Below the pieces are notes generated by a model, which saw nothing but the letters and a program-made list of their open reading frames with translations, did not search any database and was not told where the DNA came from. 32,000 nt of DNA, taken from contig OW818675.1 of the NCBI GenBank assembly GCA_942493095.1, positions 2,430,001 to 2,462,000 on the forward strand, read 5' to 3'. Positions 1,079 to 31,303 of this stretch are shown here, in pieces. This stretch comes from Candidatus Electronema halotolerans (GTDB taxonomy: Bacteria; Desulfobacterota; Desulfobulbia; Desulfobulbales; Desulfobulbaceae). Each line of letters starts with the position of its first letter. Position 1 is the stretch's first letter. A program made the position numbers and the translations under genes.

Positions 1079-2359
1079 TTACTCAGTCACCTTGACCGCT
1101 TCAGCCAGCCTGCTGTATTCCAGCGCGAACGCGGGCCGTGTCTGAATCCAGTCAAGCAGCTCGTGCCGCTGCTGCATTTTATCCTTACCATCCATCACTT
1201 TTTCGCAATGTAAAAAACAAGGGAGGCAGGGGACGGAGCATCTGAGCGTATCTTCTGAGCAGCCTGAGTCCTCTTTTGAAATAAGAACAGACACTTCTCC
1301 AAGTTTTTCTGACGACTGGCGGCAGCTCATGCTGTTCCGCATCCTTGTCGGCAACGTCGTCAAATCCGAAATTTTCAGTTTTTTTTCTCTTGGAAGCGGG
1401 TTCCGCATCCTGTCGCGGAGTCCGGCGAGTACGCACCAGTGCATGGCGACCGAGAGGATCAGCATCAGTCTGGCGATTCTGTCGGCGCGCTCCAGTTTTG
1501 TGTCCTCCAGACCGAACCCCCTGGTTTTGAAATCGCTGAACATGGCCTCGCATCCCCAGCGCATGCCGTAATCAAGTGTTTTATAATAATTTGGCTCAGT
1601 TCCTCCGACTGCCAGCAGCCAAGGCTCATCATGTCCCGGCTCCTGGAGAATGCTTAAATTTGTCTGAACCCGCTGTTCTGTCAGATAAATATTTTTCATA
1701 AGCAGTTCCTTGCGACCTTTCTTTTCAGCAGGAACAAGGTCCGCAAGAGATGTCTCATCGCCGTCCTCATTGAAAACTTTAAGATTTTCCTTGAGGCGGA
1801 GCCGATAATCCCAGCCGCTGCGGTGGCAGAATGCAATCAGCGGCGCTTGACCGTAAAAACGGTCGCCGAGCAGCAGCACTCTGCTGCCCTCTGGAAGGAA
1901 TGATTTTATTTTTTCAAGAAGTTCCATGCAGATATCCGAGCCGATATTGCCCTGTCCTTTTCGGACCCGCCATAGCAGAGGCAGGGCCCGACCGCCGAAG
2001 CGCAATGACAGCGAAAGAATGCCGAAACGGTCGGATAGCTGCGTCTGGTCAATGCACAGAATCAGCGTTTCTCCCGAAGCGGAGGCCGTCTCCAATGCCT
2101 GACGGATGAAAGGCCGCATCACATCATCATTGTCGATTGAGTCTGTGCTCAGGAAACGGCTTAACCACTGATATCGCATGTCAATCCGTTCTGTTTCCAG
2201 CGGAAGGACAGCCGCCATGTCCATAGTATTGCAACTCTGAACTTCCAAAACCGCCGCCGCGCACAAGCTTAACTTGCGCAGAGGATTCCTGTTAATTCCG
2301 GGCAAAACGTCCCGCAGGCCGGACGAGATTTCCTCTGCCAGATGACTGATCGTGCTCAT
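1079..2359 (-). CDS. IS4-family DDE transposase (426-aa ORF; the last ~35 codons lie outside the IS)
   Basis: DDE candidates are LILCIDQTQL, LLLGDRFYG and the motif YGMRWGCEAMFSDFK. That motif fits the IS4 signature Y-x2-R-x3-E-x6-K. There is no stop codon inside the element, so the frame runs through the IR (encoding EKVMDGK) into flanking DNA and stops at 1079-1081. Confidence 0.85.
   Translation of the reverse strand: MSTISHLAEEISSGLRDVLPGINRNPLRKLSLCAAAVLEVQSCNTMDMAAVLPLETERIDMRYQWLSRFLSTDSIDNDDVMRPFIRQALETASASGETLILCIDQTQLSDRFGILSLSLRFGGRALPLLWRVRKGQGNIGSDICMELLEKIKSFLPEGSRVLLLGDRFYGQAPLIAFCHRSGWDYRLRLKENLKVFNEDGDETSLADLVPAEKKGRKELLMKNIYLTEQRVQTNLSILQEPGHDEPWLLAVGGTEPNYYKTLDYGMRWGCEAMFSDFKTRGFGLEDTKLERADRIARLMLILSVAMHWCVLAGLRDRMRNPLPREKKLKISDLTTLPTRMRNSMSCRQSSEKLGEVSVLISKEDSGCSEDTLRCSVPCLPCFLHCEKVMDGKDKMQQRHELLDWIQTRPAFALEYSRLAEAVKVTE
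1183..1202. repeat. IS terminal inverted repeat (transposase-distal end)
   Basis: CCTTACCATCCATCACTTTT is the exact reverse complement of 2429-2448. Confidence 0.9.
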
Positions 2360-6564: not shown

Positions 6565-8349
6565 TCAGGCAGGAAACAAAGCAAAATGTGGATGTTCCTG
6601 ATTCTCCGCCCCGCAGACCCCGCAGCGGCGGCAGCGTGAGGTCTCGCAGGGAGAGGTTCCTTCCGCCCGCAAGGCCTTGTCCAATTCATGGTGCAGATAT
6701 GCCTTGTTGATGCCCTGATCAAGCACGTCCCAGCAGAACAGCTCGTCCGCCGTTCTGGGCCGCACTGCATAGTGCCACGCGCTGAGGCCGTGCGCCTTCA
6801 TGGCCTGCTTGAAAGAATATTTTCCTGTGCCAATGTCCAAGAGCAGCGGCGCAATGCGGCGGTCAGCACGGGCAAACACCGCCTGCATCAGGACCGTGTC
6901 AGGCCGGTCTGCCCGGAGATGAAGGTTGTCCACATCAGCCAGCGCATTCTTCAGATACTTGATGCTTTGGTTCAGGCGCAGGAGGGCGGTCTTTTCGCTT
7001 TGCTCGCGCAGAGCCTCCTCCTCAGTCAGGCCGCCAAAGGACAGATACTGAAACGGTGTCCACGGCTTGGGGACAAAACTGTTGACTGAGAGCAGCAGTT
7101 CGCAAAGCCGTCCTTTTGCCCGACCAATGGGCAGAATGCGCTCCCGGATTTTCCGCACAAGCTGGACAAATTCATCCAGATCAGCACGGGTCTCGGTGGG
7201 CAGGCCGATCATGACATAGAGCTTGAGAGTGAAAATGCCTGCCTCAGTCAGGGCGGCGGCGGCATGCAGCAGGTCTTGTTCGGCCAAGCCTTTGTTGATC
7301 ACTTGGCGGAGCCGCTGCGAGCAGCCGTCCGGGGCTATGGCCACTGATTTCAGCTCGGAGCGGGCAAGCAGATCGAGCAGGCGTGGGGAAATGCGGTCAG
7401 CGCGGAGGGAGGAGAAAGATAAGGCGCAGCCGGTCTGGCTGAGAAAGGCGGCAATCTGCTCCAGCGTCTCTGGCGCGGCCATCTCCATGCCCAAGAGACC
7501 AGCCCGCTTCATCTCAGCAGGCCGCTGGGCCAGACCCGCGAGCACAGCATCTGCGTCCCAGAGGCGGGGCGGACGGTAGATGAATCCGGCTGCGCAAAAG
7601 CGGCAGCCCCGGCTGCAACCCCGGCCCAGCTCGGTCATGTGCATGTTGAGTTCCGCCTCTGGCGAATAGAGCGCGGAATGGGCCGCCTGACCGTTGGTCT
7701 GGACAAGGGCACGGCGCACCCGCTGCGGCAGCCCCGGCGCGGCAGTGATTGCCAGCAGCCTGCCGTCGTCATCATAACGAAAACTGTAGCCGCTCGGCAC
7801 ATAACATCCCGGAATGGTTGCCCCGATGCGGTGGAGCAGCTCCTGCCGGTCAATGTTTTCCGCCGCTGCCAGCAATTCAGGCAGCAGAGACGGCAGCACC
7901 GCCTCGGCCTCGCCAATCACCATCAGATCAGCAAAAGAGGCCAACGGCTCCGGGTTCATGAACACCGCTGCCCCGCCGAGAATGACCAAAGGACGACCCG
8001 GAGCTGCCGGGCCGTTGCGCTCGGCAGTGCATGGCGGCACCTGTCCGGCAGCCAGCATGGCCGCCAGTCGGGGATAATCCTGCTCAAAACTGATCGAGGC
8101 GAAGATCAGGGGGAAGTCAGCAAGAGGCCGGTCTGATTCGAGCGAGCGGAACCGCTCCTGGTGGCCCTGCGGATAGACAAAGCGTTCGCAGACGATTTCC
8201 TCCCAGTTGTTCAGCAGGCGGTAAACAAGCTGAAAACCGAGATTGGAGACTGCCAAGGGGTAGGTGTTGGGATAGAGCAGGGCCGCAGGCAGGCGGCCCT
8301 TCCATTTTTTGCGGACTGTGCCGGTCTCCGCAGCAAGCAGGGGGTGCAA
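6565..8349 (-). CDS. B12-binding-domain radical SAM protein (uncharacterised TIGR03960-like family), 594 aa
   Basis: The CxxxCxxC cluster motif is present (CSRGCRFCAAG). The N-terminal region is typical of B12-binding radical SAM enzymes. The apparent TTG start lies 9 nt downstream of the ftsZ stop. Confidence 0.8.
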   Translation of the reverse strand: MHPLLAAETGTVRKKWKGRLPAALLYPNTYPLAVSNLGFQLVYRLLNNWEEIVCERFVYPQGHQERFRSLESDRPLADFPLIFASISFEQDYPRLAAMLAAGQVPPCTAERNGPAAPGRPLVILGGAAVFMNPEPLASFADLMVIGEAEAVLPSLLPELLAAAENIDRQELLHRIGATIPGCYVPSGYSFRYDDDGRLLAITAAPGLPQRVRRALVQTNGQAAHSALYSPEAELNMHMTELGRGCSRGCRFCAAGFIYRPPRLWDADAVLAGLAQRPAEMKRAGLLGMEMAAPETLEQIAAFLSQTGCALSFSSLRADRISPRLLDLLARSELKSVAIAPDGCSQRLRQVINKGLAEQDLLHAAAALTEAGIFTLKLYVMIGLPTETRADLDEFVQLVRKIRERILPIGRAKGRLCELLLSVNSFVPKPWTPFQYLSFGGLTEEEALREQSEKTALLRLNQSIKYLKNALADVDNLHLRADRPDTVLMQAVFARADRRIAPLLLDIGTGKYSFKQAMKAHGLSAWHYAVRPRTADELFCWDVLDQGINKAYLHHELDKALRAEGTSPCETSRCRRCGVCGAENQEHPHFALFPA

Positions 8350-18599: not shown

Positions 18600-21524
18600 C
18601 TACAGCTCCATCACTTCATCAAAGAGCTTGGCTGCGGCCCTGAGCTTGTCGCTGCTGCCAATGCTGGCCCGCACCGCCTCTGTCCTCAGTCGCTCCAGGG
18701 CTGGGGCAAAGCTGCGCAGGTCATTGGCTTCAGCATCCAGCACCTGCTCAATGATCTGCTGCCGCCGCTCCGGCGTGATGCCGCAGAGATAGGCATCACG
18801 GGCCTTGGCTCCCTCAGCAGCAGGCGAGCGCAGGGAATTGAGGCTGCCATAGGTGCCGATGATGAGCTGGTCCAGCTTGGTCCGGCTCAAGTCCAGCTTG
18901 CTCACCGCAGCGGCAATGGCCTCATAAGCACTGTAGGTTTTCTCCACCTGCGGGTCGCGGTAGCTGATGACAGCCAGATTGCCGGAGACCGGATGAAACT
19001 GGACAAAGCAGCCATAAGCTCCGCCGAGCTGCCGCACTGTGTTCCAGAGGTAATCCCGTGACAGCCAGGTCTTGAGCACCTCAAACGCGCCGTTATGCTG
19101 GCTGGGATCAGGGAACAGCTTGCAGCCCTGCACGTTATAGGCCACCTCTGCTGAGGTGGTGAAGGCCTGCCGCAGCGGCAGGACGGGAAAGTCCATTGCC
19201 CCTGCCTGCGGGGCAGTGCCGGGCAGACTGCTTTGCAGTGCAGCGGCCCGGTCTTTGATGGCCGCAATATCCGCTGCCGAGCCGGTCATGGCGATCTTGA
19301 GGCCCGCAGGCTGGAAGAGTGCCCGGCGCAGGCTCTCCAGCTTGCTGAGGAAGTCCTCCTCCAGCGCATCATAGTCCGATGCCAGGGCCTTGAGCGTCAG
19401 ATAGGCGGTCGTGCCGTTGACATGCTCATTGATCATCCCTGCCGGACTGAGCTGGGCAAAGACCCGGCTGGCGGCTAACTGCCAGCCCTCGCTCTGCACT
19501 GCGTGCTCGGCCCAGGTGAATTCGCGCAGGACAATCTCCTTGATCCGCTGCCGGTTGTTCAAGTCCAGCTCGGCCAGCACCTCCTGCACCAAGTCAAGCG
19601 CATCCGGCAGATACCCGGACAGAGCCTTGGTTTGCAGCCAGAGCAGCGGCAGCGGTTTTTGCGTGTCGCTGACATGGGTGTAGGCGGTGAAGGCATGGCT
19701 GAGGCCGCCGGTGCAGATATGGATGTCCTTGGCAAAGCGGATGTAGTCGCGCTGCGTGGTGCCGATCTCGGTGGCAATGGTGGCGAAGAGATCAAGATAG
19801 GGCAGCAGGTCCGGGCTGATCTGGGCGCAGTCGAGGCCGAACTGCACGTAGGCGATGCCGTTGCAGTCCAATTCGCTGCTGATGCACTCTGCCGAGCCGC
19901 ACTGCTCGGCAACTGCGCTGGGCTGCGGCGGCCTGCGCTCCAAGTCAGCGCGGGCCAGCTTGGGCAGCAGGGCCAAGGACTCCTCGCTGTTCGGAGTCTG
20001 CTGGAGGCGCATCAGCTCCTGGGTGTCAGCAATCAGCTGGTCAATCTGGGCCTGATCAAGCGTCTGCTTGTATGCGGCCAGCCGCTCCTGCTCGGCCTGG
20101 GCCTGCCAGGCCGCCTTGTCCGGGTCAGGCCGGAGGGTGACAGCGGCAAAGGCCGGGCTGTCCAGCAGCTTCTCCCTGATGAGCTGCTCGAAATAGCCTT
20201 CCTCCAAGGCCTTGCGGCGGATGGAGGCGAACAGCTCGTCGATCTTGAGGGCGGCAAAAGGGTCTGCGCCATGCTGCAAGGCGGGCAGAGCCTTGCTGAT
20301 CAGCTCCAAGCCGCATTGAGCGCGGGTCAGTTCCTCGCGCACCGAAAACTCATAACTGTTCAGCTCGGACAGCACCAAGTCGCGGTCAAGGCCCTGCTCG
20401 ACAATCTGAGTCAGCACGTGGCGGCAGAGGGCAAGGAAGTCGTCGCGCTTGTCCGCATCCGAGCCGACCAAGTAGGTCAGCATCACGGTCTGGACGCAGT
20501 GATCAGCAATGAACATGCCGCCAAAGTCCTTGCCCAAGCCCGCCTCAACCACGGCCTGCTTCAGGGGCGAGGCATCCGAGTTGTAGAGGATGTTGGCAAT
20601 CACCTGAAAGGCGGTGGTCAGCTCGCGGTCAAGCAGGGTGGCAACAGGCGAGGCCACAGCCAGATAGGTCTTGCCTGCCAGCGTGCTGCCTGGCTGGACC
20701 GCATAGCTGTCCTCAACAAAGACCGGCCCGCTGATGCCGCTGCCCTGAACAATCTCGGCCCGCTGGCCCGCGCTCTTGTAGTGGCAGAGGAACTTGTCCT
20801 GCACAGCGGCCAGCTCCTCGTCCAAGTCGGCATCGCCATAGAAGAAGAGCATCCCGTTCGAGGGGTGATAGTGCTTCTGGTGGAAGGCGACAAACTGCTC
20901 GTAGGTCAGGTCAGGAATGCAGGCCGGATCGCCGCCTGACTCGTGCGCGTAGGTGGATTCGGGCATCAATCCTTGGAAGCTGCGCTGGAACATGATGCGG
21001 ATCGGATCGCTCCACGCGCCCTTCATCTCATTGAAGACCACGCCTTGAAACTGAAGCGGCGCGTCCTTGCTCTCCTTGTGATAATGCCAGCCTTCCTGGG
21101 CAAAGGTGCTGCGCGGGATGAGCGGATTGAGGACCACGTCGCAATAGACATCCATGATGCTGAAATACTCGCTCAGGTTGCGGGTGGCGAAAGGGTACCA
21201 CGTGGTGTCCGCGCCGGTCATGGCATTGAGGAAGGTGGTCAGGCCGCCCTTGAGCACCTCGCCGAACACGTCATGGACTGGATACTTCTTCGACCCCATC
21301 AGCACCGCATGTTCAAGGATGTGCGCCACGCCCGTGGAATCGGTCGGCACAGTCTGGAAGGCGAAGCAGAAGGTCTTGTTCGGATCGCTGTTCTTGATCG
21401 CCAAGGCCGGAGTGCCGAGCACCTGATGCTCGAACATAAGCACGTCCGCATTGATGTCAGCGACATGCTCCGTGCGCCGGAGGATGAAGCCGTGATGAAC
21501 AGAGCCGATAGTGAAGTCAGTCAT
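18600..21524 (-). CDS. M16C (PreP-like) insulinase-family zinc metallopeptidase, 974 aa from ATG 21524
   Basis: The inverted zinc motif HxxEH is present (GVAHILEHAVLMG). The ~975-aa length is typical of PreP/M16C enzymes. The ORF-track version (to 21998) adds 158 residues that run through a DNA repeat array, and I treat that extension as non-coding. Confidence 0.85.
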   Translation of the reverse strand: MTDFTIGSVHHGFILRRTEHVADINADVLMFEHQVLGTPALAIKNSDPNKTFCFAFQTVPTDSTGVAHILEHAVLMGSKKYPVHDVFGEVLKGGLTTFLNAMTGADTTWYPFATRNLSEYFSIMDVYCDVVLNPLIPRSTFAQEGWHYHKESKDAPLQFQGVVFNEMKGAWSDPIRIMFQRSFQGLMPESTYAHESGGDPACIPDLTYEQFVAFHQKHYHPSNGMLFFYGDADLDEELAAVQDKFLCHYKSAGQRAEIVQGSGISGPVFVEDSYAVQPGSTLAGKTYLAVASPVATLLDRELTTAFQVIANILYNSDASPLKQAVVEAGLGKDFGGMFIADHCVQTVMLTYLVGSDADKRDDFLALCRHVLTQIVEQGLDRDLVLSELNSYEFSVREELTRAQCGLELISKALPALQHGADPFAALKIDELFASIRRKALEEGYFEQLIREKLLDSPAFAAVTLRPDPDKAAWQAQAEQERLAAYKQTLDQAQIDQLIADTQELMRLQQTPNSEESLALLPKLARADLERRPPQPSAVAEQCGSAECISSELDCNGIAYVQFGLDCAQISPDLLPYLDLFATIATEIGTTQRDYIRFAKDIHICTGGLSHAFTAYTHVSDTQKPLPLLWLQTKALSGYLPDALDLVQEVLAELDLNNRQRIKEIVLREFTWAEHAVQSEGWQLAASRVFAQLSPAGMINEHVNGTTAYLTLKALASDYDALEEDFLSKLESLRRALFQPAGLKIAMTGSAADIAAIKDRAAALQSSLPGTAPQAGAMDFPVLPLRQAFTTSAEVAYNVQGCKLFPDPSQHNGAFEVLKTWLSRDYLWNTVRQLGGAYGCFVQFHPVSGNLAVISYRDPQVEKTYSAYEAIAAAVSKLDLSRTKLDQLIIGTYGSLNSLRSPAAEGAKARDAYLCGITPERRQQIIEQVLDAEANDLRSFAPALERLRTEAVRASIGSSDKLRAAAKLFDEVMEL

Positions 21525-21785
21525 GAAGAAGCGGTGTGGTTGAAGTTCAGGGAATCTGCGGGCGCAGGCCGGACTGACCCGCCCTGCCAAGTCCGCAGAC
21601 GGCAGCAGTCCGCATCCTATTGTTCTAAAGATTGGTCTGAAAATCAAGAAGAATAGTTGGCGCGCAGAATTGCGCCTGCCCTGATGGCAGCTGACATCTT
21701 CCATCCCTTGCACTGGGTCGCCACCAACCTCGTTGCGGATGGCAAGGGCGGTCGCCAGCACGGCCAGCTTACGGAACATCACCAA

Positions 21786-21923
21786 AAGCACTCCAGTGCA
21801 ATTCATAGTTGCACGGGAGAAGTATTCACCATTGCACGAGAGAGGTACGCGCCATTGCACTCTCGTGCAATCCATCGTTGCACGGGAGAAGTATCTGCCG
21901 TCGCACGGGAGTGCAATCACCAT
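21786..21923. repeat. Tandem 2 x 69-bp repeat built from six 23-bp phased units that start with TTGCAC-like hexamers
   Basis: Units start at 21786, 21809, 21832, 21855, 21878 and 21901. The 30-nt cores 21796-21825 and 21865-21894 match at 28/30. GTGCAA-N7-TTGCAC dyads lie at 21796-21814 and 21865-21883. A 12-bp inverted repeat lies at 21831-21842 / 21860-21871. Confidence 0.9.
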
Positions 21924-21980
21924 GCTTGCGTCCGCAGTCCAGCTTATTGCATTTTTCAGCCCGGATGCGTCATATTTTTC

Positions 21981-22009
21981 TTGACAGGCATATCGCACCG
22001 TCGTATTTT
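21981..22009 (+). promoter_or_regulatory. Sigma70-type promoter candidate: TTGACA, 17-nt spacer, TATTTT
   Basis: A consensus -35 (21981-21986), an exact 17-nt spacer and a -10 of TATTTT (22004-22009) sit ~58 nt upstream of ATG 22067. That start is preceded by the SD AGGAGA (22055-22060). Confidence 0.55.
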
Positions 22010-22066
22010 GCCAGAAGCAGCAGTGTCCAACCTCGCTTACCCCGCCTTTTTCACAGGAGAATCATC

Positions 22067-23140
22067 ATGGCCACTCTTCAATGGCGACCAGCAGTCAACG
22101 CGCTCACTAAACCTGTTTCCTACCGTATCCAGATCATTCCCCGAAACATCGCGGGCTATGAGGAAATGGCCGCTGATATCTCCGCTGCGAATCCCAATTA
22201 CAACGCTGATCTGGTGCGCTCGCTCGCCCCGCTGATCATGGAGTGGATTCAGGACAGGATGATCAACGGCGATCAGGTCACTCTGCCCGATGCCTTTATC
22301 TTCCGCGTCTCGGCCCAAGGGCGGCTGGACAGCCCTGACGCGCCCCTGCCCGATGACGAAAATATGCTCCAGGTGAGCGTCAGCGGCACCCGTGCCTGCA
22401 CGGGCAGACTGCGGGCGGAAGGCCGGATGGAACGCCAGCCCATGAATGAAAAACTCCCGCATATCAACTCGGCTGAAGACACCAAGCTCAAGCTGGCTGA
22501 CGTGCTCAATCCGGCTGGTCTCCTCCATCTGATGGGCAGCAATCTCTATTTTGAAGAAGATGACCCGCATTCCAGTTGCGTGATTCAGGGCACGGAGAGC
22601 GGCGAGACCAAGCAGAGCACCTTTGGCGTGCTCTCCAATTCCGAGATTCTGCTTGCGCCTGACATCCCGGCCCAAGCAAACCCTTGGAACAACGAGTATT
22701 CAATTAGCCTGACCACGCATTATACAGAACATGGCACGCCGCGCACCGGCACCTATCAGCGCAGACTGCGCAGCCCGCTGGCAGTTCCGAATATGGGACA
22801 TCCGAATCCGCCCGAAACCGGCATCCTGACCGGCAGCGCGGCTGCGCCGTATGTCGTGATCAATGGTGGCTCGGTCTCAGCGGATGAACGCCTGCGCATT
22901 CAGGTGATTCAGGACTTGGTCGAGGAGCAGCTCCTTTTCTCGCTCATTGATATGAAAGAGGAGGGTGCGAGCGGTGCGGAAATCCCAGTGACCCAGAACG
23001 GGACATACAGCCTGCCGGGTTTCACTGGCTCCGCCGTGAGTTCGCTGGAAATCAGCGTGAATGAGTATGCCGCCCTCTGGGAGATGCTCCGCAATAACTA
23101 TAACGGCAGACTGGTGGATGTGCTGGATGTGGTGGTGTAG
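22067..23140 (+). CDS. Putative DNA-binding protein: HU-like (HU_HIG-type) N-terminal domain, DUF4469-like Ig-fold domain and an unassigned C-terminal region, 357 aa
   Basis: Strong SD plus ATG. The N-terminus (YRIQIIPRNIAGYEEMAADIS...LVRSLAPLIMEWIQDRMINGDQVTLPDAFIFRVS) fits the pattern I recall for HU_HIG proteins. The middle region (LPHINSAED...LMGSNLYFEEDDP...SNSEILLAPDIP...YSISLTT) fits the DUF4469 pattern. Family assignment is from memory, not from a search. Confidence 0.55.
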   Translation: MATLQWRPAVNALTKPVSYRIQIIPRNIAGYEEMAADISAANPNYNADLVRSLAPLIMEWIQDRMINGDQVTLPDAFIFRVSAQGRLDSPDAPLPDDENMLQVSVSGTRACTGRLRAEGRMERQPMNEKLPHINSAEDTKLKLADVLNPAGLLHLMGSNLYFEEDDPHSSCVIQGTESGETKQSTFGVLSNSEILLAPDIPAQANPWNNEYSISLTTHYTEHGTPRTGTYQRRLRSPLAVPNMGHPNPPETGILTGSAAAPYVVINGGSVSADERLRIQVIQDLVEEQLLFSLIDMKEEGASGAEIPVTQNGTYSLPGFTGSAVSSLEISVNEYAALWEMLRNNYNGRLVDVLDVVV

Positions 23141-23288
23141 AGGCAAGTGTGACCGCGCGGCGAGATAGATGCATTGTGGGAGATTCGTGCCTGCGACCAC
23201 GACCTGTAACCAGAATCAATGCGCGGTTGAATACGTATACGCTGTATTTAACATTGATGAGATATTAAATCATTGAGAGGATTGATTA

Positions 23289-24230
23289 ATGAAAAATAGC
23301 ATAATACGTTTTGTGTGTACAATTTTTGTATTATCATTTTATTTTTTTAATATAACATACGCTCAAGCTAAAATAGGCGGGTACTGTGGAAATTGCGAGA
23401 AGGAAAAACAGGAACTTAGCGATGCTCAGGGATTACTATCATTAGCGCAGGAAACATTATCGACAGCGAATGAAAACCTTAGTTCTGCGAGTGATAAGTA
23501 TTCAACTGCCGAAGGATTGCTTGAGTTTGCGAAGCAAGCTAAAGAGAGAGCTGAAGCATTATTAAATAATGCAAAACAAGCAGTTGCTGAAGCAAAGGAT
23601 GCCATATTAAGCCTGAAGGATGAAATAACAGCCCTTCGTCTATCTCTTATGCAGGCGACTGCATATTGGGCTTATCTTCAGATACAAGCAACCATAATTC
23701 TTAAAGAAGCAGCCCTCAGTGCAGCAGAACTACTTCTTCCCCCCTTGATAGCCGCCGCCGCCACAGCAGCAATTGTTTGGTTCGACGCAAAACAAGCAAT
23801 TCCACCATTAAAAGATCAAGTGACAGTTGCTAAGGATGATTATGAGAAGGCTTTAGAAAAATGGAGGCTTGCATCAAAGGATGTTAGAGATAAAACTAAG
23901 AATGTTGAGGTTAAAAAGAATAGTTTAGACAAATGTCTTGCAAGCCGAGTGACACCCGCTCAATGTGAGAAATGCGAAAACAATAAAATTGCAGCCAATG
24001 ACTCTGAAGACCCTGGAATGTGCAAAAAATGTCAGAACGGAGCTGTAGTAAACGATAACTCGGAAGACCCCGGAATATGCAAAAAATGTCAAGGAGGAAG
24101 TGCGGTAACTGACTATTCAGAATCTTGTAATGATTTTGATCCATGCACAGAAGGTGATCATTGCACTGATGACGGATGCGCAGGAACTCCTATCGAAAAT
24201 CCATCCCCCAGTTCTCCAGAATGCCAGTAA
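23289..24230 (+). CDS. Secreted coiled-coil protein with a central hydrophobic segment and a C-terminal tandem Cys-rich repeat region, 313 aa, of unknown function
   Basis: SD GAGAGG lies 8 nt upstream of the ATG. A signal-peptide-like N-terminus has an AQA-K cleavage motif. Long Ala/Glu/Lys/Leu-rich helical stretches are present, plus a hydrophobic segment LLLPPLIAAAATAAIVWF. There are three CxKCxN...SEDPG repeats followed by DPCTEGDHCTDDGCAG. The DNA is strikingly AT-rich relative to its neighbours. Confidence 0.75.
   Translation: MKNSIIRFVCTIFVLSFYFFNITYAQAKIGGYCGNCEKEKQELSDAQGLLSLAQETLSTANENLSSASDKYSTAEGLLEFAKQAKERAEALLNNAKQAVAEAKDAILSLKDEITALRLSLMQATAYWAYLQIQATIILKEAALSAAELLLPPLIAAAATAAIVWFDAKQAIPPLKDQVTVAKDDYEKALEKWRLASKDVRDKTKNVEVKKNSLDKCLASRVTPAQCEKCENNKIAANDSEDPGMCKKCQNGAVVNDNSEDPGICKKCQGGSAVTDYSESCNDFDPCTEGDHCTDDGCAGTPIENPSPSSPECQ
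23964..24126 (+). repeat. Three in-frame tandem ~57-nt (19-aa) coding repeats (CxKC(Q/E)N-x7-9-SEDPG)
   Basis: Units 24006-24062 and 24063-24119 match at 27 of their first 29 nt. The preceding unit, starting at Cys codon 23964, is similar at the protein level (CEKCENNKIAANDSEDPG). Confidence 0.85.
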
Positions 24231-24280
24231 GTAGGCTAGGCAAATAGCTGTATCGTTTGCCCAAGTAAGCTGACATAATT

Positions 24281-24310
24281 GGCGGGCAAGCAAAAAGTTG
24301 CTTGCCCGCC
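24281..24310. terminator. Hairpin between convergent genes; candidate bidirectional terminator
   Basis: A perfect 13-bp stem (GGCGGGCAAGCAA / TTGCTTGCCCGCC) with an AAAG loop lies between the stop of the 23289-24230 gene and the stop of edd (24342). No clear U-tract follows on either strand. Confidence 0.55.
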
Positions 24311-24341
24311 CTACGGTGTTGAGCGAAGTCGAAAGGCACCA

Positions 24342-26144
24342 TTACAGCACCGCGCTTGCTCCTTCCTCAGCCCCAGACAACACCCTCCGCAAGGCGGCAA
24401 ACATTCCATGTCCCGGCTCGGCAGACTCCGGCGGCGGCAGGGCGGCCTGTCGCTGCGCCAGCGTCGCTTCATCCACCTGCAATTGCAACGCAGAGCTGCG
24501 GGCATCCATGCGGATGATGTCGCCAGTCTGCACCTTGGCAATCAGTCCGCCTGCCAATGCCTCTGGCGTGCAGTGAATGGCAAAGGGCACCTTGCCTGAC
24601 GCGCCCGACAGCCGCCCGTCCGTGACCAATCCAACCTTGTAGCCCTGCTCCATCAGCACGGCTAACGGCGTGAGCAGCTTGTGCAGCTCTGGCATGCCGT
24701 TGGCTCGCGGCCCTTGAAAGCGGACAACCGCAATCAGGTCGCGGTTCATCTGCCCAGCCTTGAAAGCCTGCTCCAGCTCGTGCTGGCTGCTGAAAACCAT
24801 CGCCGGAGCTTCAACGCAGGTGTTCTCGCCGTCAGCCAAGGCGGAAATCTTCATGATTGCCCGGCCTAAGTTGCCGGACAGCAGCTTGATGCCGCTGACC
24901 GGGGCAAAGGGCTTGTTCAGCGTGGCGATGATGGACAGGTCACGGCTCTGCTCCGGCCCAGACTGCCAGACTGCTTTGTCCTTTGCCAGAACAGGCTTTT
25001 CCATATACCTGCTGAAGCCCGGCCCAGCCACAGTCTGCACATCCTCATGCAAAAAGCCGCCAGCCAGCAGCTCGCGGATGAGCAGGGCCATGCCGCCTGC
25101 CTGCTGGAACGAATTGATGTCGCCTGCGCCGTTGGGATAAATGCGCACCAAGAGCGGCACGGCTGCGGACAGCTCGGCAAAGTCGTCCCAGTCAATCAGG
25201 ATTCCGGCAGCCTTGGCAATGGCCACCAAGTGCATGGTCTCATTGGTTGACCCGCCCGTGGCGAGCAGGCCGACCATTGCGTTGACCACCGCCTTTTCAC
25301 TGATCACCTCGGCCAGCGGCGTGTATTCGCTGCCAAGATGAGTGATAGCAGTAACCCGGCGGGCCGCAGCCTTGGTCAGCTCCTCGCGCAAGGGCGTATC
25401 CGCATTGACAAAGGACGCGCCCGGCAGATGCACGCCCAGCATCTCGGCCATGAGCTGGTTGGAATTGGCGGTGCCGTAAAAGGTGCAGGTGCCGGGGCTG
25501 TGGTAGGCCCGCAGCTCCGAGGCCAGCAGCCCGTCCTTGCCGATCTCACCCTTGGCAAAGCGTTCGCGGATCAGATTCTTTTCCCGGTTGCCGATGCCGG
25601 AGGACATGGGGCCAGCAGGCACGAGCAGCATGGGCAGGTGGCCGTATTGCAGGCCGCCCATGAGCAGGCCGGGCATGATCTTGTCGCAGACACCGAGCAG
25701 CAGTGCGCCGTCAAAGACATTGTGCGACAGGGCGATGACCACAGCAAGGGCGATCACGTCCCGGCTCATCAGGCTCAAATCCATGCCCGGCTCGCCTTGG
25801 GTGATGCCGTCGCACATGGCAGGCACGCCGCCTGCAAACTGGGCTGTGCCGCCCGCCTCTGCCACGGCCTGCTTGATCAGCTCAGGATAGCGGCCCAGCG
25901 GCTGATGGGCGGAGACCAAGTCGTTGTAGGCGGAGATGATGGCGATGTTGGGCACCGAATCAGCAAGCAGGGCCGGACGGCAGGCCGGGCAGCCAGCAAG
26001 GTCGTGCGCCAAGTTGCTGCACGGCAGCGTTTTGCGGAACGGCCCTTTGCTTTTGGCCGCCGCCATTCGCGACAAATACGCGGCGCGGCTGGCTGCGCTG
26101 CGCTCAATAATCCGACGGGTGACGTGTTCAACAGTTGCGTTCAT
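24342..26144 (-). CDS. edd: Phosphogluconate dehydratase (Entner-Doudoroff), 600 aa
   Basis: Collinear, high similarity to E. coli Edd as I recall it. Shared stretches include RIIERS, AGGVPAMCDGITQG, PGTCTFYGTANSNQ, LLATGGSTNETMHLVA and TDGRLSGASGKVP. Confidence 0.92.
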   Translation of the reverse strand: MNATVEHVTRRIIERSAASRAAYLSRMAAAKSKGPFRKTLPCSNLAHDLAGCPACRPALLADSVPNIAIISAYNDLVSAHQPLGRYPELIKQAVAEAGGTAQFAGGVPAMCDGITQGEPGMDLSLMSRDVIALAVVIALSHNVFDGALLLGVCDKIMPGLLMGGLQYGHLPMLLVPAGPMSSGIGNREKNLIRERFAKGEIGKDGLLASELRAYHSPGTCTFYGTANSNQLMAEMLGVHLPGASFVNADTPLREELTKAAARRVTAITHLGSEYTPLAEVISEKAVVNAMVGLLATGGSTNETMHLVAIAKAAGILIDWDDFAELSAAVPLLVRIYPNGAGDINSFQQAGGMALLIRELLAGGFLHEDVQTVAGPGFSRYMEKPVLAKDKAVWQSGPEQSRDLSIIATLNKPFAPVSGIKLLSGNLGRAIMKISALADGENTCVEAPAMVFSSQHELEQAFKAGQMNRDLIAVVRFQGPRANGMPELHKLLTPLAVLMEQGYKVGLVTDGRLSGASGKVPFAIHCTPEALAGGLIAKVQTGDIIRMDARSSALQLQVDEATLAQRQAALPPPESAEPGHGMFAALRRVLSGAEEGASAVL

Positions 26145-28543: not shown

Positions 28544-28688
28544 AATAGCTTTCCTGGATGGTGAATGAAGAATTTTTCCTTGAAAGAGGTTCTACTGTAG
28601 CAGATGAGCGGTCATCTGTCATGAAAAGATTGCCTGCCAGTCAAGCTCGCTCGATCAAAAAGCAAATCGAAAATCGCAGTTGCAACGC

Positions 28689-29135
28689 TCAGAGCACCAC
28701 CAGCGTGATGCCCGGATTGCGCCGGTTCAGGTCGCTGTGGCGGCGAAGGGCCGGGAAGCGGCGGAGCAGACTCCTGCCTGCATTGCTGCGGGTGCTGAAG
28801 TCCTCGCCGCAGACGATCTCTTTGATATGGCCTTGGTAGTGGAGATAGTGGAGGCGGGCGCGGCCTTCCTCCCGGATCACGCCGCCCGCGCCCGTGGAGC
28901 CGTAGCCGTGAATCAGGGTCAGTATCCGTCGCCGCTCCAGCCGGGCTTGGATCAGCTCGCGCTCCAACCGGGCCAATGCCTCTTCGACCGAGGGCATGCC
29001 CCGCTTGAGATTGATGATCTTGTGCGGCTCGCCCTGACCGGGCAGGAACTCCTCCAGTCCGGCGCCGCAGAACGGGCAGCGTCCGCTGCCGGGTTCCACC
29101 TCATTGCCGCAGACCGCGCAGCTTATGTCTCTCAT
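28689..29135 (-). CDS. Zinc-ribbon plus Smr-domain protein, 148 aa
   Basis: The N-terminus is CAVCG-x11-CPFCG. The Smr-type core is ILTLIHGYGSTGAGG. Its ATG overlaps the rel stop codon (ATGA at 29132-29135). Confidence 0.8.
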   Translation of the reverse strand: MRDISCAVCGNEVEPGSGRCPFCGAGLEEFLPGQGEPHKIINLKRGMPSVEEALARLERELIQARLERRRILTLIHGYGSTGAGGVIREEGRARLHYLHYQGHIKEIVCGEDFSTRSNAGRSLLRRFPALRRHSDLNRRNPGITLVVL

Positions 29136-31303
29136 GCTCTGCCGCCCCGGCGCACTTCAATCATGCCGGGCAGCTGGCGGAGATGGGTCTGGAGGAGCTG
29201 AAGATGCTCAAGGCCGCTGATCTCGACTAGGACCCGGAACTCGGCAGTGTTGTCAGTTTTGCTGCGCGAGTGCATCTCAATAATATTGGCATCGTCGCTC
29301 GATATGGCCGAGCTGATGTCGGCGAGCAGATTGCGGCGGTCAGCGGCCCGGAGAAGCAGCTCGGCCTGATGCGCCTCCTGAACCGCCTCTGACCACTGCA
29401 CCTCCAGCAGCCGCTCCGGCTCGGCAGTGAGCAGGCTGGGGCACTTGGCCTTATGCACGGCCACGCCGCTGCCCATTGTGATATAGCCAATGATCTCATC
29501 GCCCGGCACCGGTCGGCAGCACTGGCTGATGCGGATCAGCAGATCATCAAGGCCCTCGACATGGACTGCGCCCCGGCCTGAAGGAACCGGCTTGCTGGAG
29601 CTGCTGCCGGTGCGTTCAAGCAGCTCCTCCTGCCGCCGCTCCGCTTCCTCCTGCTTGAGCAACTCCTCTGGCAGCAAAGCGCGTTCAAGCTGCTGCAAGG
29701 TCACTTCCCCGGACCCGACCTTGACCAGCATGTCATCAAGGGTGGTCGCCCGCAGCTTCTGGAGCAGGAGGCGAAGATGGCCGCTCTTGACCAACTTCTT
29801 GAGACTGGCGCCGCGCTGCTTCAGCTCGCGCTCGCAGATTTCTCGGCCCTGCACCAGCGCCTTTTCCTTTTCCGCCTTGCGCAGCCACTGCCGAATCTTG
29901 GCCTTGGCCCGGCTGGTCTTGACCATCTGGAGCCAAGCCTGCTTGGGACAGGGTTCCTTGGCTGTGATGATCTCGACAATGTCGCCGTTCTGCAGCTCAT
30001 ACTTGAGCGGCACAATGCGGCCATTGACCCGCGCCCCGTTGCAGCGGTCGCCAATCGAAGTGTGGATGGCGTAGGCAAAGTCTATGGGCGTGGAGCCACG
30101 CGGCATGTCGCGCACCTCGCCTGCCGGGGTCAGGGCATAGACATCCGGGTCATACAGCTCGCCCCGGACAGAGTCCAGGAACTCGACCGAGTCCTCCACT
30201 TCCTGCAAGCCTTGGACCAGCTTTTTCAATTCCTGAAACAGATGCGCGTCGCTCTTGCTGATCTTCTGGCCCGCCTTGTAGGCCCAGTGGGCAGCCACAC
30301 CTTCCTGGGCCACCTCATCCATCTCCTGCGTGCGGATCTGAATTTCCATGAAATGGCCGCCCGGCCCAGCCACCGTGGTGTGCAGGGACTGGTAGTTGTT
30401 CTGCTTGGGCGCGGAGATGAAGTCCTTGATCCGGCCCTGCACCGGAGTCCAGCTGCCGTGGATGGTGCCCAAGGATTGGTAGCATTCCCGAACTGTTCTG
30501 ACAATGATGCGGAAAGCCACCTTGTCATAGACCTGCTCAATCGGGATGTTCTGGACCACCAGCTTCTTGTAGATCGAATAGAGATGCTTGGGCCGGCCCA
30601 AGACCCGCAGCGGAGTGATGCCGTTCGCCTTGAGATTGGCGCGGAGGATTGCTATCACTTCCTCGACATACTGTTCCCGCTCGCCGATGGTGCTTTCTAT
30701 GTGCTTGGTCAGGGACTCGTATTCTGCTGGGAAGAGATGCTGAAAGGAGAGGTCTTCGAGCTGCCGCTTGAGCCAGTCAATGCCGAGGCGGCTGGCAAGC
30801 GGCGCGTACAGATCCATAGTCTCGCGGGCTATCTGCCGCTGCCGCGTCGTGTCTGAGCAGTGCAGATGGAGCATGTCATGGAGGCGGTCGGCCAGCCGGA
30901 CCAGCAGGACGCGGATGTCCGCGCTCATGGCCAGAAAGAGGCGGCGGATGTTCTCAGCCTGATGGGTCAGGCTGGAGTCATAGCGGACATGGATGATTTT
31001 GGTCGCGCCGCTGACAACGCCCGCCACATCAGGGCCGAAGCGTTGCTCCAGCTCCTCGGCGGTGGCGGCGTTCTCCTTGATCATACCATGCAGCAGGCCG
31101 GCGATGATCGAGACCAGATCAAGGCGCATTGAAGCCAAGGTGGTGGCCACGTCGAGCAGATGCCGGGTGTACGGCTCGCCGGAAGGATGAAGTCGCCCCT
31201 TGTGCCGCTCGCAGGCGAACTGATACGCTTCCTGGAGCGGACTGAGATCAACCTCGTGGAGATAGCTGCGGGCCACTGAAAGCAGCCCTTGGAAATCAGG
31301 CAT
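29132..31303 (-). CDS. rel: Bifunctional (p)ppGpp synthetase/hydrolase (RelA/SpoT homologue), 723 aa from ATG 31303
   Basis: The HD hydrolase region (HKGRLHPSGEPYTRHLLDVA), the synthetase region (YQSLHTTV) and the TGS and ACT-like C-terminal regions are present. ATG 31303 gives a SpoT-like N-terminal length. An in-frame GTG at 31327 is an alternative start. Confidence 0.92.
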   Translation of the reverse strand: MPDFQGLLSVARSYLHEVDLSPLQEAYQFACERHKGRLHPSGEPYTRHLLDVATTLASMRLDLVSIIAGLLHGMIKENAATAEELEQRFGPDVAGVVSGATKIIHVRYDSSLTHQAENIRRLFLAMSADIRVLLVRLADRLHDMLHLHCSDTTRQRQIARETMDLYAPLASRLGIDWLKRQLEDLSFQHLFPAEYESLTKHIESTIGEREQYVEEVIAILRANLKANGITPLRVLGRPKHLYSIYKKLVVQNIPIEQVYDKVAFRIIVRTVRECYQSLGTIHGSWTPVQGRIKDFISAPKQNNYQSLHTTVAGPGGHFMEIQIRTQEMDEVAQEGVAAHWAYKAGQKISKSDAHLFQELKKLVQGLQEVEDSVEFLDSVRGELYDPDVYALTPAGEVRDMPRGSTPIDFAYAIHTSIGDRCNGARVNGRIVPLKYELQNGDIVEIITAKEPCPKQAWLQMVKTSRAKAKIRQWLRKAEKEKALVQGREICERELKQRGASLKKLVKSGHLRLLLQKLRATTLDDMLVKVGSGEVTLQQLERALLPEELLKQEEAERRQEELLERTGSSSSKPVPSGRGAVHVEGLDDLLIRISQCCRPVPGDEIIGYITMGSGVAVHKAKCPSLLTAEPERLLEVQWSEAVQEAHQAELLLRAADRRNLLADISSAISSDDANIIEMHSRSKTDNTAEFRVLVEISGLEHLQLLQTHLRQLPGMIEVRRGGRA

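Follow-up and report, generated by a model that had tools for sequence, protein, structure and literature searches.

A conserved cable-bacterial gene of the HU-HIG/DUF4469 type, its upstream 23-bp repeat array and a low-GC passenger gene in Candidatus Electronema halotolerans

HU-HIG proteins were defined as a clade that radiated in Bacteroidetes, where paralogues are numerous and operon partners are lacking (Burroughs et al. 2017, PMC5499826). Here we analyse a gene of this type (gene A), the repeat array upstream of it and the gene that follows it (gene B) in a 32,000-nucleotide (nt) stretch of Candidatus Electronema halotolerans DNA (GenBank assembly GCA_942493095.1, contig OW818675.1, positions 2,430,001 to 2,462,000), which is called the window below and to which all coordinates without a locus label refer. 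Two other kinds of described system come close to this locus. Iteron and centromere arrays precede the gene of their own binder, as in plasmid Rep (17-22-bp iterons), ParR-parC and TubR-tubC, and in such systems the repeat sequences diverge quickly at a constant geometry. Variable islets are hotspots between conserved genes whose content is exchanged by flanking homology. The HU-HIG/DUF4469 protein family is already known and uncharacterised; new here is a conserved cis-element for this family, with a 23-bp pitch, paralogue-specific palindromes and phasing to the promoter. The literature searched contained no mention of DUF4469, and HU-HIG was essentially confined to its defining paper; the supplements of cable-bacteria papers contained no DUF4469 or HU entry, and the Treponema TrtA paper mentions an HU/DUF4469 gene in passing only. 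The parts of the locus are as follows.

21788-21925, unstranded: repeat array, six contiguous 23-bp units, each starting with GCAC
21926-21980, plus strand: spacer of 55 bp between array and promoter, kept in the Electronema orthologue alignment
21981-22009, plus strand: sigma-70-type promoter, TTGACA, 17-nt spacer and TATTTT, 10 of 12 consensus positions in a promoter scan
22055-22061, plus strand: Shine-Dalgarno sequence AGGAGAA of gene A, the same in all aligned orthologues
22067-23140, plus strand: gene A, 357 amino acids (aa), cytoplasmic and acidic, with HU-HIG-like, DUF4469 immunoglobulin (Ig)-like and extra beta domains
Gene A, about residues 1-125: HU-HIG-like N-terminal domain
Gene A, about residues 130-225: DUF4469 Ig-like domain
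Gene A, about residues 250-357: beta-rich C-terminal domain, without counterpart in the Protein Data Bank (PDB) entry 4FMR
23141-23288, plus strand: intergenic region between genes A and B, left edge of a variable cargo slot
23289-24230, plus strand: gene B, a secreted 313-aa orphan of low GC
24231-24341, unstranded: conserved 3' element, with hairpin 1, hairpin 2 and then CTACGGTGTTGAGCGAAGTCGAA up to the edd stop codon
24238-24262: hairpin 1
24281-24310: hairpin 2, perfect 13-bp stem with a 4-nt loop

A preliminary description of this DNA had named most of these parts, and they are there: the repeat array, the near-consensus promoter with a strong Shine-Dalgarno sequence, the perfect 13-bp hairpin, an AT-rich secreted Cys-repeat protein with a Shine-Dalgarno sequence of its own, and a mosaic composition (GC 0.58 in gene A vs ~0.4 in gene B). 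Its span of 21525-24341 needs trimming: the features lie inside it, but the first ~260 nt (21525-21785) are unique to this strain and fall outside the conserved unit, and gene A starts at 22067, not 22068. Homology across genomes begins ~12 nt upstream of the repeat array, and when 21525-21790 was compared by BLAST with all fetched loci, matches were found in contigs of the same strain only.

The 23-bp array is shared by most of the gene A family. We examined the region from -330 to -60 by autocorrelation at the 77 family loci with enough upstream sequence, which are phylogenetically related and hence not independent, and at 192 control windows. The best upstream period was 23 bp at 52 family loci and 46 bp at 13, which gives 65/77 vs 3/192 controls, and a periodicity score of at least 0.6 was reached at 53/77 family loci vs 0/192 controls. 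A TTGAC -35 box was present at 76 of the 77 loci, and at 64 it lay 84-89 nt upstream of the ATG. In the gene A orthologue alignment, TTGACA is unchanged throughout. The leader of gene A in the window is 57 nt long and carries a strong ribosome-binding site. Arrays across the family have 3-7 units, and the unit sequence is paralogue-specific. The unit motif of the window has 8 matches there, 7 of them within the array, vs 0.37 expected by chance. Units 1, 4 and 6 contain the palindrome GCAC-N4-GTGC, and units 2, 3 and 5 have the left half-site alone. Units of other paralogues carry other palindromes: CTCGA-N-TCGAG, ATGC-N2-GCAT and, at locus L071, GCATGGAGG-N3-CCTCCATGC. Palindrome arms of at least 5 bp were found in 23 of 54 arrays (vs 11% of shuffled units), and the centres of the palindromes stand in 11.5-bp phase with the -35 box (R = 0.63 vs a scan-corrected 99th-percentile null of 0.57).

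Comparison of units across the family indicates that period and position of the array are kept, because they persist where the unit sequence changes fast and is homogenised within each array; unit similarity falls to background below ~70% protein identity. These observations point to the 23-bp-period array as a hallmark of the gene A family and support the link between array and gene A, which the preliminary description had already drawn and which the presence of such an array before nearly every family member strongly bears out. Rfam 15 contained no family that matches the array or the 3' hairpin element: nothing passed the gathering threshold anywhere in the window, and nothing reached E <= 1 in 21500-24450. 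A sigma-54 site (TGGCAC-N5-TTGC) was looked for between array and ATG by eye, without a formal scan; no match was seen, and the idea was dropped.

The gene A protein has no signal peptide and no membrane segment, and its domains became apparent mainly through its family. Alone, the window protein scored 19 bits against DUF4469 (PF14734; E 1.3e-3), short of the Pfam cut-off of 22.6 bits, and had no Pfam HU match; a PDB sequence search with it returned nothing, and it matched no NCBIfam, PHROGs or PADLOC model. Among 35 aligned relatives, DUF4469 was matched in 34 (best E 3.3e-9) and HU-HIG (PF18291) in 14. The family profile reached PDB 4FMR (Bacteroides vulgatus BVU_2165) with E 1.5e-4 over residues 37-223. 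An AlphaFold2 model with a predicted local distance difference test (pLDDT) score of 85 has 4FMR as its closest solved structure (Foldseek E 1e-10), and its first ~90 residues match HU/IHF chains with probability 1.0 and template modelling (TM) scores of 0.62-0.79. In a BFVD fold search, the HU domain alone was matched. The HU-like/Ig-like fold named in the preliminary description is thus well borne out by the 4FMR matches; the DNA-binding function attached to it is uncertain for an acidic protein with acidic arms.

The family is sizeable and its named members close to hand are cable-bacterial. We found 735 homologues at E <= 1e-3, and all named ones in the top 120 are from cable bacteria; a profile search of 1.84 billion cluster representatives matched 647 clusters. 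Single metagenome-assembled genomes carry 2-3 paralogues (L005 with two in L008; L001 with L009), and the neighbours of gene A differ from genome to genome. The ratio of nonsynonymous to synonymous substitution rates (dN/dS) among gene A orthologues is 0.15-0.21, which indicates purifying selection; for edd, the gene facing gene A in the window, it is 0.13 vs strain JC and 0.08 vs the more distant L007 copy. By these comparisons, gene A is a conserved cable-bacterial gene and not an accessory one, so the term "accessory module", under which genes A and B had first been put together, fits the strain-specific gene B only.

We note several further features of the family. Its GC is ~0.57-0.63 at 36 loci with surroundings of 0.35-0.65; it is steady regardless of the flanks, and family members are therefore GC-richer than both flanks in lower-GC Electrothrix-type contigs. 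Conflict-type genes occur near gene A, namely Trypco1/Trypsin_2 with NACHT or nSTAND-WD40 (L014; L017/L018, upstream of thrC) and a KAP NTPase (L019:8213-9610). Two distant relatives sit in phage-like neighbourhoods without a clear 23-bp array upstream. At L022:1602-5195, an 837-aa form precedes a 347-aa HU-HIG/DUF4469 paralogue, with Rep_O, HTH_3, IstB-like and PolB-exo genes close by; at L021:1532-2572, a 346-aa relative stands beside a VapE-like gene.

The arrangement of gene A and edd can be traced in related genomes, which are referred to below by their labels. Strain JC has the order ilvD, gene A, PIN toxin-antitoxin pair, edd; edd alone is shared between its locus and the window, and pyrF and lgt are not. 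In VV, the ilvD-edd site (L104:7803-8844) holds a decayed gene A unit, of which the first array unit, the promoter, the leader and the last ~200 nt of gene A are left, followed by small open reading frames (ORFs) and then the two-hairpin element. Fragments of the edd 3' end, 33-95 nt long, lie beside the gene A module in PJ, KV and F5. The intact edd of PJ sits elsewhere and its 3' end has diverged. That a moving element carried these fragments along was considered and rejected; we read them as deletion scars because the PJ fragment matches the ancestral edd type and not the intact edd of PJ. The JC order, the decayed copy in VV and the edd scars in PJ, KV and F5 show that gene A facing edd is the ancestral Electronema arrangement, and the A-edd junction is therefore not the product of an insertion between peptidase and edd. 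By this comparison the window keeps the ancestral junction, and only its left flank, the M16C peptidase, is new. The picture of an insert wedged between two operons has to be given up, and the empty site that it would predict, with the peptidase directly next to edd, was seen at no examined locus; the M16C peptidase adjoins gene A at none of the examined orthologous loci.

Toxin-antitoxin genes recur around edd. In F5, a PIN/RHH pair sits between two copies of the edd 3' fragment (L002:1768-1819 and 2582-2633), and in PJ the intact edd lies between a PIN pair and a PhD/YoeB pair (L103:5336-5982 and 7876-8342). The 3' end of edd attracts toxin-antitoxin modules.

DNA homology between the window and other Electronema genomes ends at the stop codon of gene A and resumes at 24226. 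What lies between, the cargo slot, is unrelated to the window in 8 of the 9 relatives with a gene A orthologue; a B-like gene is present in VV only. The following content was found after gene A.

JC and F5: PIN toxin-antitoxin pairs
KV: secreted 145-aa protein, 79-aa protein and a DUF4160/DUF2442 pair
PJ: an ORF of 77 or 80 aa, depending on the gene call
JM: 173-aa membrane protein
S01: 526-aa secreted protein
VV: 195-aa B-like protein (P0124), directly after the intact gene A
YB6: convergent housekeeping gene

Gene B has a GC of 0.41 (~0.36-0.44 along its length) and the sequence GAGAGGA 7 nt upstream of its ATG. Its product begins with a Sec-type signal peptide (residues 1-27); a hydrophobic segment (145-163) is set among long helices, and the protein has 15 Cys and a Cys-rich C-terminus with a repeated DSEDPGxCKKCxxG motif. 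An internal tandem repeat of 57 nt (19 codons, 23998-24111, motif NDSEDPGxCKKCQxGxxV) is present in 1-5 copies in the relatives, of which we found three among 5.8 billion proteins. No family or structure was matched in NCBIfam, PHROGs or PADLOC, by Pfam with the Cys-rich tail or by a PDB profile search with the B family; the PHROGs and PADLOC hits were coiled-coil noise to SMC-like models (E 7e-4 or worse), and a single-sequence AlphaFold2 model (pLDDT 50) was too poor for a fold search. Two of the homologues, P0123 and P0122, lie on contigs without a gene A (L016 and L105, the latter just 1.3 kb long). On L105, segments of 39-45 nt (746-790 and 978-1016) match L037 and L025 with 82-90% identity, and such short segments common to unrelated cable-bacterial contigs suggest small dispersed repeat elements. 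KV has the closest gene A and lacks gene B. The gene A tree places halotolerans beside KV, and VV beside F5; B-type cargo is therefore found on two distant branches.

We take gene B to be a strain-specific foreign passenger, accessory to the conserved unit. DNA in the slot is exchanged repeatedly, probably by homology, with gene A and the 3' element as arms. A terminator scan found none between gene A and gene B, and 23141-23288 has no stable fold (z = -0.38); read-through from A to B is plausible for this reason, and gene B is probably transcribed from the gene A promoter, together with gene A.

KV, PJ, JM and the ilvD-edd site of VV have kept the two-hairpin element to the right of the slot, and S01 and JC have kept part of it. 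The 121 nt around hairpin 2 fold with z = -4.5. The element is a probable shared terminator, at which transcription of A/B from one side and of edd from the other would stop. A conserved block, CTACGGTG(T/C)TGAGCGAAGTCGAA (24311-24333), lies after hairpin 2 and before the edd stop codon, and is also present at loci L001, L003, L004 and L104. Translated on the opposite strand it would give a 'FDFAQ'-type peptide, and it may resemble widespread short repeat elements.

For the function of the array, we favour a model in which gene A binds the DNA upstream of itself. The gene A protein would dimerise through its HU-like fold, as 4FMR does, and one dimer would occupy each 23-bp unit, with two half-sites ~11.5 bp apart. 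The Ig-like and C-terminal domains would stack neighbouring dimers along the array, and the loaded array, helically phased to the promoter, would set the transcription of gene A. A fixed pitch combined with private unit sequences points to binders of a common geometry that differ in specificity. Because each paralogue has its own repeat sequence, we propose that the private repeats prevent cross-talk among the copies in one cell. We prefer self-binding and self-regulation because gene A is the sole paralogue-specific protein at these loci; both are predicted from sequence, and DNA binding by gene A itself is uncertain. An Arg-rich helix (residues 101-125) is among the variable segments of the protein and could serve as a reading head; the RTGTYQRRLRSP motif is another candidate for a DNA interface. 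Our confidence in the composite reading as a whole, with array and gene A as a self-regulating unit, gene B as a passenger and the two-hairpin element at the end, is about evenly divided. A bolder proposal, which we offer tentatively and think rather improbable, is that an expanded cable-bacterial HU-fold/Ig-fold family has turned to sequence-specific, cooperative assembly on private, phased 23-bp palindromic arrays, with gene A also acting as a homology anchor for swapped-in cargo expressed from its promoter. If true, the arrays and their proteins would be mutually insulated protein-DNA 'addresses', and the family would be a novel type of nucleoprotein organiser or regulator derived from HU.

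Several observations weigh against binding of the array by gene A. The protein has an isoelectric point (pI) of 4.7 overall and of 5.1 in the HU-like domain, and the segment equivalent to the HU arm, GRLDSPDAPLPDDE, is acidic, which speaks against classic HU-type DNA binding; the basic protein with basic, DNA-embracing beta-arms that is typical of HU/IHF is not what gene A encodes. The Ig domain of 4FMR fills the DNA cleft, and HU-HIG proteins were considered unlikely to be sequence-specific factors, with DNA binding of the Ig-fused forms doubted (Burroughs et al. 2017, PMC5499826). The turnover of the units outpaces the evolution of the protein, which is not expected of a cognate pair, and some protein pairs of 85-88% identity (e.g. 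window vs KV) have unrelated units. In pairs with similar proteins and different arrays, the substitutions are not concentrated in one segment, and block 101-125 is variable in all comparisons. Promoter and leader contain no extra copy of the own unit (mean score 7.12 at own vs 7.03 at other loci's promoters, p = 0.52).

The acidic protein and arms, the occluded cleft and the rapid divergence of the units all favour an alternative in which a factor other than gene A binds the array, or in which the array is purely structural, a cruciform or bent DNA by a strong promoter. On this view the gene A protein would not bind DNA and would use its HU fold for dimerisation only; its role would perhaps be structural or lie in the conflict-related recognition of proteins or RNA, which is what Burroughs et al. 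suggested for Ig-fused HU-HIG. The array as single-stranded DNA is strongly self-complementary (z = -4.8), the GC of the gene A family stays at ~0.60 whatever flanks it, and conflict-type neighbours (NACHT/Trypsin, KAP NTPase, toxin-antitoxin) are frequent, all of which would suit this explanation. A common factor, however, leaves paralogue-specific units at a fixed 23-bp period unexplained, no second paralogue-specific gene is linked to these loci, and the Arg-rich helix, a possible reading head, is among the most variable segments of the protein. We consider this alternative unlikely.

The block from the array through the 3' element could also be a non-autonomous mobile or relocatable cassette, with the array as an end or recombination site for a recombinase acting in trans and the slot as its payload. 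In VV, besides the decayed copy at the ilvD-edd site, an intact 2.2-kb block of array, gene A and the B-like gene lies within the 3' end of thrC, with ~70 nt duplicated on both sides (L017:4454-4524 and 6659-6732), and this duplication is the signature of an insertion that restores the end of its target gene. Of the two copies, the one on the right is the native end of thrC, directly followed by the next gene. Orthologues of 72-88% identity in differing chromosomal contexts, the sharp onset of homology just before the array, the gathering of toxin-antitoxin and other selfish cargo in the slot and the phage-like neighbourhoods of distant relatives are likewise in line with a cassette. But the block lacks a recombinase and terminal inverted repeats, its right end has no array, and duplicated flanks of the module, sought with a sensitive search, were absent from the window and from seven other loci and present in VV only. 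Searches of plasmids, GenBank phages and IMG/VR turned up no relative of gene A; deletion scars are the better reading of the edd remnants; synteny is poor here in any case, with only edd common to the window and JC; and gene A is under purifying selection like a host gene. This explanation seems to us quite unlikely.

The proposal that array, gene A and gene B form one system, in which a dedicated DNA-binding regulator controls a secreted, possibly membrane-active effector, draws on the extreme rarity of B-type proteins, on the position of P0124 immediately after an intact gene A, elsewhere on the chromosome and within a block bounded by the thrC duplication, on A-B adjacency in two genomes from distant gene A branches and on the lack of a terminator between the genes, but we hold it to be very doubtful, and largely refuted as an obligate system, given unrelated cargo or (in YB6) a convergent housekeeping gene in 8 of the 9 other gene A genomes, the absence of gene B from KV, the P0123 and P0122 homologues away from gene A, the GC of 0.41 vs 0.58 and an array with gene A at no fewer than 77 loci nearly all of which lack a B-like gene. 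The co-occurrence of A and B that the preliminary description proposed to look for was found, among the nine relatives examined, in VV only, and the functional link between the two genes is weak.

Outside the conserved unit, the window contains the following genes.

Minus strand: PilT-like ATPase, radical SAM protein, ftsZ, ftsA, ftsQ, murB, murC, murG (Pfam)
Minus strand: PPDK-like gene (Pfam), between the end of the dcw cluster (murG to ftsZ) and the M16C peptidase
18600-21524, minus strand: M16C (PreP-like) peptidase (Pfam), left flank, strain-specific and outside the conserved unit
24342-26144, minus strand: edd, phosphogluconate dehydratase (Pfam), ancestral convergent neighbour of gene A
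Beyond edd, minus strand: pyrF, lgt, dapB, relA/spoT (Pfam)

All ORFs with Pfam support between 5413 and 31327 are on the minus strand, with gene A and gene B as the plus-strand exceptions, in agreement with the minus-strand run of ~5.4-31.3 kb first described. A plus-strand ORF of 173 aa with a TTG start (28680-29201), in the gap between dapB and relA, has no Pfam match and is a doubtful gene; if real, it would be a third plus-strand gene within this run. The frame of the M16C peptidase is open for 158 codons upstream of its MTDF start (21525-21806, minus strand), and a public gene call uses a 1068-aa form. This upstream extension is probably noncoding because a terminator-like hairpin of the minus strand (21676-21659) falls within it. 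As had been reported for this region, no integrase, transposase, tRNA or flanking direct repeat was found: the window contains no tRNA gene, neither gene A nor gene B matches a recombinase family, and no noteworthy direct or inverted repeats flank the region, including in the sensitive search for duplicated flanks. The only mobility gene found in the window is a DDE transposase (DDE_Tnp_1; 1079-2359, minus strand), 19 kb away.

For annotation, genes A and B should not be reported as one system. In cable bacteria, where the gene A family has expanded and is conserved, the organisation of the nucleoid and the multicellular biology are still poorly known. Should gene A bind the array upstream of it, this would mean that sequence specificity of a private, orthogonal kind is within evolutionary reach of HU-fold proteins, contrary to the published expectation for this clade.

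Compared with iteron and centromere systems, the locus shares direct repeats of about two helical turns just upstream of the promoter of a regulatory or architectural gene, and its repeats likewise change fast at constant geometry. It differs in being chromosomal and in having an HU/Ig fold instead of a winged-helix or ribbon-helix-helix; the gene A protein is acidic, and its binding to the repeats is a prediction from sequence. No replication or partition partner (Rep, ParA, ParM, TubZ) was found in the gene A region. The resemblance to variable islets lies in the stop codon of gene A and the two-hairpin element, which enclose unrelated, mostly low-GC genes, including toxin-antitoxin genes. 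Unlike such islets, the cargo slot is tiny (0.4-1.9 kb), has no identified integrase or attachment site and is seemingly tied to one family and one genus, being inconsistent in paralogues and in Electrothrix orthologues. Closest of all are the HU-HIG/DUF4469 proteins of Bacteroidetes (BVU_2165, 4FMR), which likewise combine an HU-like fold at the N-terminus with an Ig-like DUF4469 domain after it and also occur as several paralogues per genome with no conserved operon partner. The gene A family differs from them in its sigma-70 promoter at a near-fixed distance and its phased 23-bp array, a combination that is unreported for the Bacteroidetes clade and was not tested there. It differs also in its occurrence in cable bacteria (Desulfobulbaceae), in a third, beta-rich domain of ~110 aa and in orthologues that are conserved (dN/dS ~0.15-0.2) and not fast-diverging.

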